Origin: an uncultured delta proteobacterium
GTDB taxonomy: Bacteria > Desulfobacterota > Syntrophia > Syntrophales > Fen-1087
Length of the DNA stretch: 64,000 nucleotides
Direction: 5' to 3'
NCBI GenBank assembly: GCA_963708515.1
Contig: CAVPSX010000011.1
Location: 104,710 to 168,709, forward strand
In this document: one piece after another, positions 2,463 through 23,635 of the stretch
Layout: each line of letters opens with the position of its first letter
Position numbering within the stretch: the first letter of the stretch is position 1
Translations under genes and position numbers: made by a program
Notes under the pieces: generated by a model
Databases searched by the model: none
What the model saw: the letters and a program-made list of their open reading frames with translations, nothing else
What the model was told of the DNA's origin: nothing

Positions 2463-3152
2463 ATGCCACCTTCAGAAGCAAAAGTAAAAGAAGAAGTCTC
2501 CTATTATGAAAAGGGGCAAATCAAGGAGAAAAAGCAGTCCCTGGCCGGAAAGACCCACGGTGAATATCTCTCATACTTCGGCAACGGTCAGGTCATGGCC
2601 CGGCTTTATTTCGTCAATGGTGTCCGCGAAGGAGAAGCCGTATCTTATTACAAAGACGGACAAATTCGGGAAAAGGGAACATATCGAAACAATAAATTCG
2701 AAGGTGAATATACAAATTATTATGAAGACGGCCAGCTCAGGGAACGGGAATTCTACCGGGATGGCAAACTGGACGGCGAGTATCTGTTCCATTACCGCAA
2801 CGGGCAAATCAGGGATAAGGAATTCTACCAGGACGGAAAGCTGCATGGCGAGTACCTGTCCTTTTTCAAAAACAGCCAAATCAAGGAAAAGGGGGCCTTC
2901 CTCAACGACCGGCGCGAGGGCGAATATGTCGCCTATTACCGCAACGGCCGAATCCGGGAAACGGTAACCTATGAAAACGGCAAGCTCAAGGGAAAATTTC
3001 TGTGTTACGATGAATCGGGACAGCCTGTCCGCGTGAAGGATAAGGATAATATCGAAGACTCCTCTGAAATAGAGGATAATGCGGAAGATAAGAAAAAAAG
3101 GATTGACGACCTGCTGACGAGTCTCGGGAACTTTGAAAAAAAGACGGATTGA
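2463..3152 (+). CDS. MORN-variant repeat protein (YwqK antitoxin-like)
   Basis: About seven ~24-aa repeats of the G-E-Y-x-x-Y-Y-x-N-G-Q-I type; GGGAG SD upstream of ATG 2463. Confidence 0.85.
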   Translation: MPPSEAKVKEEVSYYEKGQIKEKKQSLAGKTHGEYLSYFGNGQVMARLYFVNGVREGEAVSYYKDGQIREKGTYRNNKFEGEYTNYYEDGQLREREFYRDGKLDGEYLFHYRNGQIRDKEFYQDGKLHGEYLSFFKNSQIKEKGAFLNDRREGEYVAYYRNGRIRETVTYENGKLKGKFLCYDESGQPVRVKDKDNIEDSSEIEDNAEDKKKRIDDLLTSLGNFEKKTD

Positions 3153-3162
3153 CGCGACGGTC

Positions 3163-3287
3163 ATTCCATTTCTAAATCAAAGATGATATCGAAGCGGCAA
3201 GGAGGAGGCGACGAGGCGTATTGTACATACGTCGAGGAAGCCGACGACGCAGCCAACAAAGATGGCGCTTTTATTTAGGAAAGGAAT
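3163..3287. repeat. 125-bp MITE/REP-like palindromic intergenic element
   Basis: Terminal inverted repeats ATTCCATTTCTAAAT / ATTTAGGAAAGGAAT (13/15) and an internal hairpin GGCGTAT-TGTAC-ATACGTC. Confidence 0.6.
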
Positions 3288-3307
3288 CACATCATGAAGG
3301 AGGCCTT

Positions 3308-4147
3308 ATGGTCAAGACAATCCTCATCCCCACGGATGGCTCCGAATACGGCCGGACGGCCATCGATTTCGGTATCTATATCGCGAAAAAACTGGAAGCG
3401 CAACTCATCGGGCTACATGTCATCGATATCGGGCTCATGCACGGGACGGTCTTCAGCGATATCTCCGGTTCTATTGGCCTGCCGCCCTATCAGGAATTTC
3501 TCCCCGTGATCGAAGCGGGACTGGATGGACGAGCCGAAACGGTATTGAAAGCCTTTCGGGAGCGCTGCGAGGCCGCGGGATTGCATCCGGAGACCATCAA
3601 GGCCGTCGGTGTCATCGACGAAACCATTATCGAAGAAGGCAAGAAGACGGATTGGATTATGCTGGCTCAGCGCGGTGAAAACTTTCATCTTGCCAAAGGC
3701 GGGATCCTGGGTTCCACGGCGGAACTGGTCGTCCGAAACTCTGGAAAGCCGGTTATGGTGACGCCCAAGACCTATCAGAATATCGAAAGCATGGCCCTGG
3801 CATATGACGGTTCGCCCCCGGCTCATAATGCCCTGAAGCTTGCCGTAAACCTTTCGGAGAAAGCCGCCTGGCCCCTGACGATTATCTGCATCACCGACAA
3901 TCAGGCCGTTGCCGACCGGCTCCATGAAAAAATCGAAGCCACCCTTGAACCCTTCCAGATCGACTGTGAAACGATCGTCATCCGGGGCAAGGAAAGCCGG
4001 GAGCTCATTAAATTCATTGAGGAAGATTCTGTCGAACTGCTTGTCATGGGCGCCTACGGCCACAACCGGCTGCGGCAACTGCTGGTGGGCAGCACGACAT
4101 CCGATGTCATCCGCAGGACTAAGATCCCTGTCCTGCTGACGCGCTAA
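3308..4147 (+). CDS. universal stress protein (two USP domains)
   Basis: ILIPTDGS, ILGSTAE, LAYDGS and MGAYGH..LVGSTT motifs; GGAGG SD before ATG 3308. Confidence 0.92.
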   Translation: MVKTILIPTDGSEYGRTAIDFGIYIAKKLEAQLIGLHVIDIGLMHGTVFSDISGSIGLPPYQEFLPVIEAGLDGRAETVLKAFRERCEAAGLHPETIKAVGVIDETIIEEGKKTDWIMLAQRGENFHLAKGGILGSTAELVVRNSGKPVMVTPKTYQNIESMALAYDGSPPAHNALKLAVNLSEKAAWPLTIICITDNQAVADRLHEKIEATLEPFQIDCETIVIRGKESRELIKFIEEDSVELLVMGAYGHNRLRQLLVGSTTSDVIRRTKIPVLLTR

Positions 4148-18790: not shown

Positions 18791-19075
18791 ATGAGTAAGT
18801 TGGACAAAAAAACGCTCGTCCAGATGGGCTATGCCAGCAGTATCGGCATCGCCATGGTCCTGGCGGTCTTTGGAAGCCTCTTTTTTGGCCACTGGCTGGA
18901 CAAGAAATTCGGGACGCTCCCGTATTTCACGATTATCTTTCTGCTCATCGGCGTGTTCGCCGGTTTTAAAAATATTTACAATCTGATTCTGCGGAATTTC
19001 AAGAATGAAGAACCCGTGATCAAGAGTTTGAAACGTGAATCCCATAGAAAAAGACCCCCTCCAGCGAAAGCTTGA
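18791..19075 (+). CDS. atpZ: AtpZ/AtpI-family ATP synthase membrane protein, copy 1
   Basis: SSIGIAM..G.WLDKKFGT.P..G..AGF.N pattern; followed by atpI. Confidence 0.85.
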   Translation: MSKLDKKTLVQMGYASSIGIAMVLAVFGSLFFGHWLDKKFGTLPYFTIIFLLIGVFAGFKNIYNLILRNFKNEEPVIKSLKRESHRKRPPPAKA

Positions 19076-19445
19076 AATACTCAACTGGATCATTCTGGGC
19101 TTGTTTGTGGCGCTCAGCCTGCTGTTCTTTTCCACCGATTTCACGCTCGGTATCCTGCTGGGTGGCCTCATCAGTGTTGCCAGTTTTTCCTGGCGGCAAC
19201 GGGACCTGCGGAAGGTATTTCGCAACCTGACCGAGCGGGCGCGATCGGCCATTATGTTCCGCTACTACATCCGTTTCTTCGTTTCGGCCGTCCTGATCTA
19301 CCTGATCATCACCCGGACGTCAGCCGACGTGATCGGTCTGCTGGTCGGCCTCTCCATCGTCATCATTAACATTGTCCTGACCCTGCTGATGGGGCTCATG
19401 ATAAAACCCGATCCGGCAGACAAGATAGAGGAGGAAGCACCTTAA
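19035..19445 (+). CDS. atpI: ATP synthase subunit I (4 TM)
   Basis: Four hydrophobic segments, GILLGG, RYYIRF, IGLLVGLS; follows atpZ. Confidence 0.82.
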   Translation: MNPIEKDPLQRKLEILNWIILGLFVALSLLFFSTDFTLGILLGGLISVASFSWRQRDLRKVFRNLTERARSAIMFRYYIRFFVSAVLIYLIITRTSADVIGLLVGLSIVIINIVLTLLMGLMIKPDPADKIEEEAP

Positions 19446-19702
19446 TGAAAAACTTCCTGCACAAAAGACGGCCATCATCACCGGCGCCATTGCCGACAGC
19501 ATTCACTGGCTGCTCGTGCTGCCGCCCCATGTCCATGTCAGAGAAATAATGATCCGCCCTACGGGTCAGAGCTACCCATGACGCCATCAGACATCGCCCT
19601 TTTATCGGAACCCTGCATATTCCTCCTGAGACGAATCCATCCGGACAGGGCGGTTTGAGAAATCACCGACACAGCACCAATATCGTATGGTTGAAAAAGT
19701 TA

Positions 19703-19732
19703 TTGACACAGAAGGCTGTTCCTTTCTAAACT
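19703..19732 (+). promoter_or_regulatory. sigma70-type promoter for the thaumatin-lipoprotein pair
   Basis: TTGACA-18 nt-TAAACT; AAGGAG SD before ATG 19780. Confidence 0.55.
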
Positions 19733-19779
19733 CCGTCCGCAAAAAACGAAGCCCTTATTAATAACCAAGGAGCGCAACG

Positions 19780-20763
19780 ATGCCTACGATCCGGCATGCA
19801 ATTCTGTTCTTCATATGGACTCTTTGGGTTGTTCCGACCGCGATGGCGGCCGGCCCGGTCCCGCACAAGATCACGTTCAAGAACAACTGTTCGCAAACCA
19901 TCTGGGTGGGGCAGGACGGAACAATCCGGGACGGGTGGGAAATGAAGACGGGAAATTCCGTCACAAAAAGCATCCCCGTGGGATTCTCTGGCAGGTGGTG
20001 GCCGCGAACCGGCTGCCACTTCGACGCAACGGGTAAATGTCCCACCGAGGGCGTGAATTGCTGCGACTCGGGGGGGTGTATTACCTCCGATCCAAAATAC
20101 TTTGGTTTGAAATGCAACGGTGGCGGACGCCCGCCCGTATCGCTATTCGAGCCCACTTTTGACGCCCCCAGCGGACACGGACCGATCGATTACCTGGATT
20201 TGAGCGCGGTGGACGGGTTTTCCGTGCCGATGCAAATGGCGCCCAATCCGGGAACCTTTAACCCCAACCCGGACCCCGGGATGAAAGCCGGCATATGGTG
20301 TCAAACCAAGGGCTGGAAGACAAACCCTACCTGCCCTGCAGAACTATGGGACAAAAACAAAAACCTCTGCTGGGGGCCGTGCGCTTATTTTACGACCGTG
20401 AAAGAGGTAAAGACCGGGAAGAACAAAGCCAACATCTGCTGCGACAACACGAATGTGGACTATCCCCCGACTCCGACGAAAAAGTGCGAGAACAATGACT
20501 TCAGTGGCGGTTTTGGCTGCTCGCCATACTCTCCCGGCAATGATGATGAAAGATGCTATGCGAAGGATTCGGGCAAGCATGGCTACTGGGGGGCAATTGT
20601 TGATTCGACATGGCCCGGAATCAAAAATTCCACGCAGTATATCACCAATGTGAATACCGGGATTCCCGGCGTGTACGCCTGGCAGTTCGACGATTTCAAC
20701 AGCACTTACAACTGCAGGAAAACCGGGGGATCCGTAGATTATACGATCACCTTCTGCCCCTGA
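19780..20763 (+). CDS. secreted thaumatin/PR-5 family protein
   Basis: Signal peptide (AMA); ITFKNNC..TIW, SGR.W.RTGC.FD, PP.SL.E, DY.D.S.VDGF.VPM, Y.W.FDD, YTITFCP; 18 Cys. Confidence 0.9.
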   Translation: MPTIRHAILFFIWTLWVVPTAMAAGPVPHKITFKNNCSQTIWVGQDGTIRDGWEMKTGNSVTKSIPVGFSGRWWPRTGCHFDATGKCPTEGVNCCDSGGCITSDPKYFGLKCNGGGRPPVSLFEPTFDAPSGHGPIDYLDLSAVDGFSVPMQMAPNPGTFNPNPDPGMKAGIWCQTKGWKTNPTCPAELWDKNKNLCWGPCAYFTTVKEVKTGKNKANICCDNTNVDYPPTPTKKCENNDFSGGFGCSPYSPGNDDERCYAKDSGKHGYWGAIVDSTWPGIKNSTQYITNVNTGIPGVYAWQFDDFNSTYNCRKTGGSVDYTITFCP

Positions 20764-20799
20764 ATGAACTTAGGGCTTGTGGTTTTTAAAGGATTGACC

Positions 20800-21942
20800 A
20801 TGACAACTGGCAAACAATGCAATTGGGCGAACAATCTGACTCCTTTATTCCTCGTTTTCTGTCTGCTGATCGCCGGCTGCAGCAGTGGGGGACAAGCGCA
20901 AGTCTATGCAGTCGGCTCGGCCGTGTCTGATGGGACCACAGGGGTGAATATCCCGGTTTACTGGAACAATGCCATTACCGAACTCTCCCGGATCGATTCC
21001 ACGTGCGATGGCTATGCAAACTCTATCATTGTGGCTGGACAAGACACCCATATCGCCGGAACCACTTTTGTATGCTCTGACGGTGGAACAGCGAAAACAC
21101 CCGTCGCGGCCTACTGGAAAAATGGTGTCCGCACCGACCTGGAACGGCCGGCGGCCCATGCGCAGGAAGCATCGGAAGCGCAGCAGGTCTTTCTGGCCAA
21201 CGGATCCATCTACGTTGCCGGGTACGTGACGGGCGATAACGGCCCCCTTCCCGTATACTGGCGGGACGGAAGGATTGTCTATCTCACTGCAATTCCATAT
21301 GGGGGCACGAAGGCCCGTGCGTCAAATATTTATGTTGACGGAACGGATGTCTATGTTAGCGGTGCCGCCCTGTTCGATACCGCCTACCCGGTATATTGGA
21401 AGAACGGGGAGGTGTTCACGCTGCCCATTCCCAGCGGATTCCGCGGGACCAGCGTCCCTCTGCCCATTCATGTGTCCGGCGGAGACGTTTATGTTTTCGG
21501 GCATCTCCACCGCCTGCGGACACCAACGAACTGGGATAGATCGGAGCGGCCCGTCTACTGGAAAAACGGGACGCTTGTCCCCCTCTTCCCCTTGACAAGC
21601 GGCGCCGGATACTCTTACGGCGGCACGGTTTTCAACGGGACGCCCTACAGCGCCGGGGCATATGTCGAGGGGGTTCTTTATACCCCCTCCGTATGGGCGG
21701 ATCAAACGCGGCAGCGGCTGCCGATGATTGACGAGGGGCTCTACGGCATGGCGCATGATGTGTTCGTGGATGAGGGAGGAATTTACGTGGTCGGCTGGAA
21801 TCATGAGTCAACAAACCCGACCGACCCGGAAGCGCTCCTGAGAGCTGTTCCCTGCTACTGGATCAATGGCGCCAGGGTGGACCTGCCGGTGCTGAAGGCG
21901 GGTTCATCGGCTTACGCCCGGGAGATATATGTCGCCCGATAA
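20800..21942 (+). CDS. lipoprotein with seven YWKNG-type repeats (probable beta-propeller)
   Basis: Lipobox LIAG-C; repeats VYWNN, AYWKNG, VYWRDG, VYWKNG, VYWKNG, SVWAD, CYWING, each followed by a DVYV.G-type strand. Confidence 0.8.
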   Translation: MTTGKQCNWANNLTPLFLVFCLLIAGCSSGGQAQVYAVGSAVSDGTTGVNIPVYWNNAITELSRIDSTCDGYANSIIVAGQDTHIAGTTFVCSDGGTAKTPVAAYWKNGVRTDLERPAAHAQEASEAQQVFLANGSIYVAGYVTGDNGPLPVYWRDGRIVYLTAIPYGGTKARASNIYVDGTDVYVSGAALFDTAYPVYWKNGEVFTLPIPSGFRGTSVPLPIHVSGGDVYVFGHLHRLRTPTNWDRSERPVYWKNGTLVPLFPLTSGAGYSYGGTVFNGTPYSAGAYVEGVLYTPSVWADQTRQRLPMIDEGLYGMAHDVFVDEGGIYVVGWNHESTNPTDPEALLRAVPCYWINGARVDLPVLKAGSSAYAREIYVAR

Positions 21943-21948
21943 ATCGAC

Positions 21949-23635
21949 TTATCCCCTCGTCATGCGCCGGTATTTGATCCGGTGCGGCTGGCTGGCCGCA
22001 GCACCGAGGCGCAGCTTCCGGTCGGCTTCATATTCGGAATAGTTCCCGTCGAACCAGACGACGCGGCTCTCCCCTTCAAATGCGAGGATATGCGTCGCGA
22101 TCCGGTCGAGAAACCACCGGTCATGGCTGATGATCACGGCGCAACCGGCAAAATTCTCCAGCGCCTCTTCGAGCGCGCGCATGGTGTTGACGTCGAGGTC
22201 GTTGGTCGGCTCGTCGAGCAGCAGGACATTCGCGCCTTCCTTGAGCATGCGCGCCAGATGGACGCGGTTGCGTTCACCGCCCGATAACATGCCCACCTTC
22301 TTCTGCTGGTCGGCGCCGGAAAGGTTGAACCGGGCCACATAAGCCCGTGAATTGACCAGTTTACCACCGAGCTGGATCATCTCCTGTCCTTCGGAAATCA
22401 CCTCCCAGATGGTCCTGTCGGGATTCAGAACGTCGCGACTCTGATCCACATAGGCCAGCTTCACGGTCTCGCCGACCCGGATGGTACCGGAATCCGGTGT
22501 TTCCTGCCCCGTGATCATGCGGAAGAGGGTCGTCTTGCCGGCGCCGTTCGGTCCGATGACGCCTACAATCCCGCCGGGCGGCAGTGAAAACGACACCCTC
22601 TCCATCAGGAGCCGGTCGCCGTATCCTTTTGTCACATTTTCCGCTTCGATGGCCATCCTGCCGAGCCTCGGGCCGGGGGGAATGTAGATCTCCAGTTCGC
22701 CGGCGCGTTTTTCCCCTTCCTGCCCCAGCAGTTGCTCGTAGGAACTGATGCGCGCCTTTGATTTGGCGTGCCGTCCCTTGGGGGACATGCGAATCCACTC
22801 TAACTCCCGCTGCAGCGTTTTCTGCCGTTCCGTCTCGCTTTTTTCCTCGAGGCGCAGCCGGTTTTGCTTCTGCTCGAGCCAGGACGAATAGTTTCCCTGC
22901 CAGGGAATGCCCTGGCCCTTGTCGAGTTCCAGAATCCAGCCCGCCACATTGTCCAGAAAATACCGGTCGTGTGTGACTGCGATAATCGTACCGGCATAGC
23001 GCTGCAGATGATGTTCAAGCCACGCGACGGACTCAGCATCCAGATGGTTCGTCGGTTCGTCGAGCAGCAGGATATCGGGCTTCTGCAGGAGCAGCCGGCA
23101 CAGGGCAACGCGCCTTCTCTCGCCGCCCGACAGGATGTTCACGGGCGTATCTCCCGCGGGGCAGCGCAGGGCGTCCATGGCCATTTCCAGACGCGAGTCC
23201 AGGTCCCAGGCGTCCAGGGCGTCGAGCTTTTCCTGTACTTTCCCCTGGCGTTCGATCAGGGCGTTCATCTGCTCATCCGTCATGGGCTCGGCAAACTGTT
23301 CGTTGATCCGGTTGTATTCGCCGATCAGATCGACCACCTCCCGGACGCCCTCTTCGACGATCTCGCGCACCGTTTTTTCTTCATTCACAAGCGGCTCCTG
23401 CTCGAGAAAACCCACCGTGTATCCCGGCGAGAGGATCGTTTTGCCGTTGAAGTCCTTGTCCACATCGGCCAGAATGCGCAACAAGCGAACTCTTGCCCGA
23501 TCCGTTGAGTCCCAGGACGCCGATCTTCGCACCATAGAAATAGGACAGGTAGATGTCCTTCAGCACCGCTTTCTTGTCATGGTATTTGCTCACTCCGATC
23601 ATGGAGTAGATAACCTTGTTGATTTCAGCCGTCAT
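21949..23635 (-). CDS. ettA: energy-dependent translational throttle EttA (ABC-F), one apparent +1 frameshift near 23486
   Basis: N-terminus SYFYGAKIGVLGLNGSGKSS (ORF 23381..23635) joins LLRILA.. (ORF 21949..23535); two ABC cassettes and RELEWIR..KGR.AKSKAR linker. Confidence 0.9.

Follow-up and report, generated by a model that had tools for sequence, protein, structure and literature searches.

A 64,000-nucleotide (nt) stretch from an uncultured delta proteobacterium of the order Syntrophales (assembly GCA_963708515.1, contig CAVPSX010000011.1, positions 104,710 to 168,709 of the forward strand), referred to here as the window, carries two co-oriented open reading frames (ORFs) that its ORF listing places at 19780-21942. 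The first (gene 1) encodes, as sequence comparison shows, a thaumatin-family (PR-5) protein whose acidic cleft is intact; the second (gene 2) encodes a predicted lipoprotein with seven tryptophan-centred repeats of the YWKNG type. Our results show that the two genes make up a cassette, passed on and horizontally transferred as a unit, and it is very likely that thaumatin protein and lipoprotein form a functional unit. We propose, while giving this a little less than an even chance, that their products form a membrane-tethered thaumatin/propeller heterodimer acting on a glycan. In this model the gene 1 product would be exported by the Sec pathway as a disulfide-rich thaumatin protein with an acidic cleft, the lipoprotein would be both membrane tether and partner of this otherwise soluble protein, the heterodimer would be located in the cell envelope, and the two together would recognise a beta-glucan-type glycan and might also cleave it.

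Two genes inherited and transferred as a unit

In a set of 41 related genomes, the same three (G000, which is the genome of the window, G001 and G006) hold close orthologues of the two genes, and one further genome holds a distant homologue of the propeller gene only. Searching species genomes with the thaumatin alignment gave 28 loci, of which six (L011-L015 and L017) have a close orthologue of the lipoprotein gene, in all six cases directly 3' of the thaumatin gene; the record titles of these paired loci name a 'delta proteobacterium', Syntrophaceae, Smithella, 'Deltaproteobacteria' and, in one case, a 'Nitrospirota' chromosome. A scan of metagenomes with the lipoprotein returned 22 loci, comprising seven close orthologues and 15 distant ones. 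All seven close orthologues (L039-L045; 64-96% identical, L044 and L045 being possibly the same organism) have a thaumatin gene just upstream, which in two cases is cut by the contig end. In the linkage comparison, where the close propeller orthologues are 56-92% identical, the thaumatin gene is therefore directly upstream at 13 of 13 loci and orphan copies of the close lipoprotein subfamily number 0 of 13, whereas the distant lipoprotein homologues (22-33% identical) have no thaumatin gene in the examined flanks at any of 15 loci.

The pair also moves as one. At L012, L013, L014, L015 and L017 the two genes are the sole genes in common. The flanks of the pair in the congener L012 map to contig 18 of G000, elsewhere than the window locus. 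At L015 the pair is 65% identical to that of the window, while for the flanks the best matches in the window's genome show 29-48% identity, and a close orthologue is absent from all 30 relatives of the L015 genome. The pairwise identities of the thaumatin and lipoprotein sequences correlate (r = 0.88, over 55 non-independent pairs from 11 loci). The original prediction of a two-gene unit with a 36-nt gap, which had named conservation in other genomes as a check, is borne out on both counts, and the pair recurs in varied genomic contexts.

That prediction had also raised the possibility of a chimeric contig, and we hold it extremely improbable that the genes are chance neighbours or an assembly artefact. 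The source assembly (2.8 Mb, 99.4% complete) consists of 23 contigs with 4.85% estimated contamination, and nothing else speaks for such an origin. Against it, the congener L011 (G001) has the gene order gmd-fcl-atpZ-atpI-thaumatin-lipoprotein-ABC-F, identical to that of the window, and the guanine plus cytosine (GC) fraction of the pair region, 0.53-0.59, is like that of the rest of the window. Each of 18 public sequencing runs contains half or more of the sampled words of the stretch 19600-22000, and the stretch occurs whole or in part in runs from 13 studies, which by their records are sediment and freshwater metagenomes. Run X2 has a contig of 1968 nt that runs across 19466-21432, with two differences and one gap, and another of 593 nt across 21540-22132; contigs of run X6 cover 19221-20541 and 20951-21790 with 0-1 differences. 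Depth peaks and joints at 22050-22585 correspond to a conserved ABC (ATP-binding cassette) ATPase gene and derive from other organisms. The pair locus is not chimeric, since a syntenic congener and independent metagenome contigs bridge its junctions.

The two proteins and their predicted complex

Gene 1 matches the Pfam family PF00314 (Thaumatin) with 94.2 bits (cut-off 27.4; E 1.2e-26) in two stretches, and the same family is present in 51 of the 51 homologues found for it; against NCBIfam there was no match. Searched against the sequences of the PDB, gene 1 matched 25 distinct thaumatin-family sequences at E <= 0.001, among which the thaumatin-like protein 3zs3_A ranks first (E 9.1e-19) and the thaumatin-like 2ahn_A second (8.1e-16), ahead of osmotin, NP24, zeamatin and thaumatin. 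The alignment falls into two pieces, residues 30-165 and 284-327, in which SGR, LFE, DYLD, VDG and FDD of gene 1 stand opposite the plant SGR, LVE, DYYD, VDG and YDD, the cleft residues being in line with those of 3zs3_A and 2ahn_A. The acidic-cleft residues of the thaumatin family are known as REDDD; in the alignment of gene 1 relatives, R72, E124, D137, D140, D145, D304 and D305 are invariant (25 of 25), and each of the 18 cysteines is kept in 24 or 25 of the 25. Read by eye, the N-terminus has R5/H6, a hydrophobic run and A-M-A before A24, and homologues are similarly hydrophobic there. In the complex prediction described below, the gene 1 chain reaches a predicted local distance difference test score (pLDDT) of 82-92. 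The signal peptide, cleft and 18 cysteines of the original prediction are upheld. The full thaumatin signature that it claimed holds as far as the Pfam hidden Markov model is concerned, whereas the classical PROSITE-type pattern, which has little weight against that model, is not strictly matched, the region reading GKCPTEGVNCCDSGGC.

Oxidative folding of the 18-cysteine protein by a periplasmic oxidation system is plausible, judging from sequence. On contig 6 of G000 (20065-20909) a DsbA-like gene (28.1 bits, over the cut-off) adjoins a VKOR-like gene (26.2 bits, just under 27.5), and DsbB was not found in genome G000; a DsbA-like and VKOR-like pair without DsbB would be an alternative periplasmic route to disulfides, here in a presumed strict anaerobe.

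The ORF of gene 2 opens at 20764, and the ATG at 20800, 36 nt after the stop codon TGA (20761-20763), is the supported start because homologues begin at the aligned methionine, an AAAGGA lies 6 nt upstream and a related strain (run X2) has a 1-nt insertion behind 20787, for which reason we also take the spacer to be non-coding. A lipobox follows the pattern [LVI][ASTVI][GAS]C; that of gene 2, I-A-G-C, comes after a hydrophobic run, and its C27 is shared by at least 90% of the 32 homologues aligned. In E. coli, a serine at the +2 position sorts a lipoprotein to the outer membrane, and the serine at +2 in gene 2 suggests the same location here. The seven repeats are marked by the invariant tryptophans W55, W106, W154, W200, W254, W299 and W354, spaced 45-55 residues apart, most of which sit in a V-Y-W-K-N-G context after a V-Y-V-x-G strand. 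The lipoprotein with seven YWKNG-type repeats had been described correctly. Across the family, only the repeat tryptophans and glycines and one aspartate are invariant, so a scaffold would fit the gene 2 family better than an enzyme.

No significant match to gene 2 was found in Pfam or NCBIfam. The DUF5122/delta-60 propeller repeat (PF17164) scored 12.7 bits against a cut-off of 27 (E 0.16), no Pfam Kelch model appeared at E <= 1 for gene 2 or its propeller homologues, and Pfam scans of the 32 propeller homologues returned scattered sub-threshold matches to NHL, the PorZ propeller, LVIVD and unrelated families, with no consistent family among them. A profile of 32 family members matched Kelch structures of the PDB weakly (SAKe6FR, E 0.0021; SAKe6FE, 0.005; Keap1, 0.13-0.26). 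From the repeats and these matches, gene 2 is most likely a seven-bladed Kelch-like propeller. The YWKNG family is a large one (720 proteins at E <= 0.001 in a word-indexed search) and mostly from Bacteroidota according to the protein Atlas labels of the neighbours of P0062, a homologue of gene 2; the exact sequence of gene 2 is absent from the Atlas, and the clusters nearest to P0062 are all unnamed 'hypothetical protein' entries without structure.

The complex was predicted from the mature chains, using our own alignments, in three runs and with three controls. The interaction prediction score from aligned errors (ipSAE) for the thaumatin protein and the lipoprotein was 0.43, 0.86 and 0.63 (median 0.63), compared to 0.00 in all three controls, with at least 35% of contacts in agreement, a partner pLDDT of at least 87 and 82-115 contacts per run. 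The mark set for this score is passed by 58 of 80 solved complexes and by 2 of 110 mismatched pairs, a calibration that is only rough here because our own alignments were used. In the best run, the thaumatin protein makes contact through the cleft (residues 70-72, 124, 126, 128, 144-145, 303 and 305), the loops 130-135, 230-237 and 248-253, and residues 314-317; the lipoprotein does so through loops all along its chain, the distribution that one face of a propeller should show. Complex modelling, suggested in the original prediction, therefore came out in favour of direct binding, which we consider probable.

The two proteins could instead have linked functions without binding each other, both acting on the same envelope or environmental polymer, for instance as a propeller lectin and a glycan-binding or glycan-cutting thaumatin protein that are merely co-expressed. 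We regard this as unlikely, although a shared pathway would suffice for co-occurrence and co-transfer, the ipSAE varied between runs, and the YWKNG family is mostly found away from thaumatin genes (15 of 15 distant loci) and must therefore have a function of its own. What speaks for contact is that the complex score lies over the mark of the tool with every control at zero, and that the contact residues are conserved in a subfamily-specific manner. Identity at the lipoprotein contact positions is 0.61 within the paired subfamily but 0.09 among distant homologues, and C69, G71, Y72, P101, P166, F192, D193, Y196, L293, Y294, L314, Y315, M317 and R374 are fixed in the paired subfamily and different in the distant homologues.

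Sister proteins and possible roles of the pair

A quick maximum-likelihood tree of 39 thaumatin rows, which contains long branches and is not read for a eukaryotic or bacterial origin of the family, was used only to define a clade of 17 rows (Shimodaira-Hasegawa-like approximate likelihood ratio support 99), which holds every paired thaumatin protein along with P0007-P0010. All four end in 4-6 repeats, each about 35 residues long, which have the precomputed label PF26696; P0007 has a sub-threshold match to Tectonin, 24.6 bits against a cut-off of 30. At L016 (133-3832), a repeat-bearing thaumatin gene is interrupted by an IS3-type transposase pair (1516-2660), and the same repeats also close a second secreted protein (2828-3832); as two L016 proteins carry them, the 35-residue repeats appear to be a shared C-terminal module. 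In metagenome-assembled genomes (MAGs) labelled Desulfobacterales (L023, L024, L025, L027 and L028), the thaumatin ORFs have 606-655 residues, begin with a lipoprotein-like leader and are extended at the N-terminus by about 340 residues, which are internally duplicated and have no Pfam match, and the thaumatin proteins labelled Nitrospirota have a different, C-terminal extension. Among metagenomic proteins, P0195 has a thaumatin domain fused to PA14 and GLEYA, and in P0172 an InlB B-repeat and a sub-threshold BACON match come after the domain; these fusions suggest that some non-plant thaumatin proteins have a role in adhesion or with carbohydrates. At the unpaired loci L018-L028, no neighbouring gene besides the thaumatin gene is common to three or more loci. 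Such architectures suggest a recurring theme, in which a thaumatin domain is tethered to the envelope or joined to binding modules by various means. By analogy with these alternative anchoring architectures, the lipoprotein may be a tether, to which we assign somewhat less than an even chance.

Thaumatin genes are sporadic in bacteria, as had been stated: of 401 genomes sampled from the phylum, 12 hold a PF00314 match above the cut-off (17 do at E <= 0.001), as does none of 14 control genomes. A library of 1.84 billion representatives gave 630 clusters at E <= 0.001, 140 at 1e-10 and 18 at 1e-30. The more remote named matches include a tardigrade protein, 37% identical over the full length of the bacterial protein, and cotton thaumatin-like proteins. 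In the tardigrade protein (P0187; XP_055349015.1, Paramacrobiotus metropolitanus) the identity of 37% includes the expanded middle region, and in the quick tree it groups, on long branches, with the metagenomic P0204 and the PA14 fusion P0195. The original prediction went too far in calling the protein unexpected in an anaerobe, as the same clade occurs in MAGs labelled Syntrophaceae, Smithella, Desulfobacterales and Nitrospirota.

A glycan-capture, anti-eukaryote or partner-adhesion role, as put forward for the pair at the outset, and likewise surface exposure and beta-1,3-glucan specificity, would follow only from homology to plant PR-5 proteins and from the carbohydrate-binding domains on some metagenomic relatives. 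A target of the beta-glucan type would agree with this homology and these domain fusions, and we put it forward tentatively. We think it quite unlikely that the thaumatin protein is a released antifungal or anti-protist defence protein of the PR-5 kind with the lipoprotein as export or release helper. The plant homology, the retained cleft residues and the occurrence of the stretch in sediment and freshwater metagenomes of 13 studies would agree with such a protein; on the other hand, secretion beyond the periplasm is without evidence, antifungal activity is not readable from sequence, and the recurrent anchoring architectures of the sister proteins argue for retention at the cell.

Several observations weigh against a tethered heterodimer that acts on a glycan. 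Fatty-acid and alkane syntrophy, and not glycan use, is what the lineage is known for. Thaumatin proteins about 40% identical have no such lipoprotein in the examined flanks. As regards the fused forms, homology of the 35-residue repeats to gene 2 was considered and rejected (hhalign probability 0.2%), so the fused forms are an analogy and not a Rosetta-stone fusion of the same partner. As regards expression, contigs from RNA libraries are short, come from two libraries (X19, covering 20170-20342 at about 93% identity, 20796-21001 at 99% and 21620-21781; and X20, covering 21504-21725), and may reflect DNA carry-over or relatives; stretches that lack RNA cover are uninformative. Within the predicted interface, the propeller residues are no more conserved than the rest in the paired subfamily (0.61 versus 0.71) and the thaumatin residues only marginally more so (0.76 versus 0.73). 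Finally, the predicted interface buries the conserved cleft; if the model is right, the cleft would be unable to bind a glycan at the same time, and a docking or inhibitor role would fit better than a simple tether.

The burial of the cleft leads to two variants, in which the cleft either contributes to a docking or composite site or is an active cleft masked by an inhibitor. Both roles of the lipoprotein, left unconsidered by the original prediction, also fit the cleft-covering interface. In the first variant, the thaumatin cleft would have been taken over as a docking site for the top face of a dedicated Kelch-like propeller lipoprotein, giving a horizontally exchanged envelope adhesin or composite glycan receptor of anaerobic sediment bacteria; we regard this as possible though doubtful.

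The second variant, the main rival to our proposal, is an enzyme-inhibitor pair of the effector-immunity type, in which the thaumatin protein would be an exported glycan- or membrane-active antagonist and the lipoprotein would plug its cleft in the envelope of the producer. Lipoprotein lysozyme inhibitors, which block lysozymes, offer a comparison. Such a pair would account for the large predicted interface (82-115 contacts per run) over R72, E124, D145 and D305, for a gene order in which the lipoprotein follows the enzyme at a distance of 36 nt, for the strict co-occurrence and joint movement of the two genes and for the many subfamily-specific contact residues (0.61 in paired against 0.09 in distant homologues), and a thaumatin-fold protein inhibitor, the xylanase inhibitor TL-XI (3g7m), is known in the PDB. 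It is weakened, however, because sister thaumatin proteins do without the lipoprotein (for example the fused forms; at L016 there is none within 6 kb), as do the relatives that are about 40% identical, and because orphan copies of the close lipoprotein subfamily are found at none of the 13 loci. In addition, the loci share no secretion-system or toxin context, PADLOC gave no match, and a protein directed at beta-1,3-glucan would need no self-protection in a bacterium. We therefore judge an inhibitor unlikely, and retain as our proposal the membrane-tethered heterodimer acting on a glycan.

Locus features and comparison with known systems

The coordinates of the cassette and its signals are collected in Table 1. 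The pair begins after a 334-nt gap 3' of the ATP-synthase-I-like gene, its 5' neighbours being genes for a GDP-mannose 4,6-dehydratase, a GDP-fucose-synthase-type epimerase, ATPase_gene1 and ATP-synt_I, and it stops 6 nt short of a convergent ABC-F ATPase gene. The original prediction had given the unit its own promoter. A site of suitable sequence is present, but the region holds two promoter-like sites compared to 1.8 +/- 1.4 in shuffles; as this is not above chance, the site is a candidate only. A terminator scan likewise gave nothing above the shuffled expectation, and no terminator 3' of gene 2.

Table 1. Positions of the two genes and associated features in the window
Feature	Position	Strand	Basis
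Candidate sigma-70-like promoter, TTGACA-18-TAAACT	19703..19732	+	10 of 12 matches, 48 nt 5' of gene 1 start
Ribosome-binding site, AAGGAG	19768..19773	+	Read from sequence, 6 nt before gene 1 ATG
Gene 1, exported thaumatin-family protein, 327 residues, 18 Cys	19780..20763	+	ORF, Pfam, homologue alignments
Predicted Sec signal peptide, residues 1-23, A-M-A before A24	19780..19848	+	Read by eye
Intergenic spacer, 36 nt, with AAAGGA ribosome-binding site at 20789-20794	20764..20799	+	Sequence and related-strain indel
Gene 2, lipoprotein, seven W-centred (YWKNG-type) repeats, 380 residues	20800..21942	+	Homologue alignment, lipobox, repeats
Lipobox I24-A25-G26-C27, Cys27 lipidated (predicted)	20869..20880	+	Sequence, alignment

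The genes around the cassette have peculiarities of their own. At 18791-19445 (+), ATPase_gene1 (AtpZ-like) and ATP-synt_I are followed by no other ATP synthase genes, and the thaumatin cassette comes next, likewise in the congener L011. At 21949-23635 (-), the ABC-F (EttA-like) gene lies in two ORFs of 84 and 528 residues, split by a frameshift near 23470-23490 in the GKSSL/LRILADVDKDF stretch; the copy in L011 is intact, and the frameshift is either a real pseudogene or an assembly error. On contig 11 of G000, outside the window (L002, 1435-2547, -), there is a 370-residue lipoprotein-like protein with bacterial TSP3 (DxDxDG) repeats (60.7 bits), and its cysteine-rich C-terminal part matches thaumatin weakly, at 23.3 bits and under the cut-off; comparable weak thaumatin matches are found in ORFs of 381-387 residues in G275 and G331, genomes of the same order.

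Textbooks present thaumatin-like proteins as defence proteins and allergens of plants. If the cleft is indeed a docking site for the propeller, gene 1 would be the first bacterial thaumatin-fold protein known with a dedicated protein partner, and the pair would give a first functional handle on the large YWKNG lipoprotein family, possibly the first function for a widespread family that has no Pfam model. The clade offers a testable system, with a conserved partner gene, a predicted interface at a catalytic-type cleft and natural variants with fused anchoring modules, which could reveal the prokaryotic role of the thaumatin fold and whether its cleft binds glycan or protein. Although the practical stakes are modest, it would be of value for understanding how protein families evolve and for the envelope biology of syntrophic anaerobes.

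The pairing, its mobility and the predicted cleft-to-propeller interface appear not to have been described before. Among the literature matches listed, none links thaumatin to these lineages and the phrases 'bacterial thaumatin' and 'prokaryotic thaumatin' are absent, 'YWKNG' occurs in no searchable paper, and a characterised bacterial member was not found, the only mention being at motif level in Legionella. NCBI labels some gene 1 relatives 'thaumatin family protein'. The Legionella proteins are bacterial proteins with a thaumatin motif and of unknown function, reported only as 'eukaryotic-like motif' hits of an intracellular pathogen, with no partner gene described for them (PMC4256840).

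The plant PR-5 and thaumatin-like proteins (3zs3, 2ahn, osmotin 1pcv and zeamatin 1du5) belong to the same Pfam family as gene 1 and are exported and disulfide-rich, as is predicted for its product. Both the N-terminal core (residues 30-165) and the strand region at the C-terminus (284-327) can be aligned, with the R/E/D/D/D residues in register, whereas the middle of gene 1 (about 166-283) is some 100 residues longer, more divergent and aligns poorly. Gene 1 further differs in being bacterial and in having a dedicated lipoprotein partner gene, and the similarity is low (E 1e-9 to 9e-19). The long plant thaumatin forms have 16 cysteines in eight disulfides, compared to the 18 cysteines of gene 1. 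TL-XI is also a thaumatin-fold protein, one whose role is to bind another protein, and it matches gene 1 weakly (E 3.2e-4); however, it is a short form of 151 residues and its partner is a glycoside hydrolase instead of a propeller lipoprotein. We know of no structure of a TL-XI complex.

For gene 2, the nearest comparison is with the Kelch propellers (Keap1 and the designed SAKe6), which have repeats of about 45-55 residues with a conserved glycine and tryptophan in each, as gene 2 does; gene 2 differs in its V-Y-W-K-N-G motif, in its seven repeats and in being a bacterial lipoprotein. Its family, an unnamed repeat family, resembles the Kelch propellers only weakly. Gene 2 is itself a member of the YWKNG-repeat lipoproteins, sharing their seven-repeat plan and N-terminal lipoprotein-like leader, and within them the thaumatin-linked subfamily (at least 46% identical) has conserved loop motifs of its own and is the only part of the family that is found beside a thaumatin gene.

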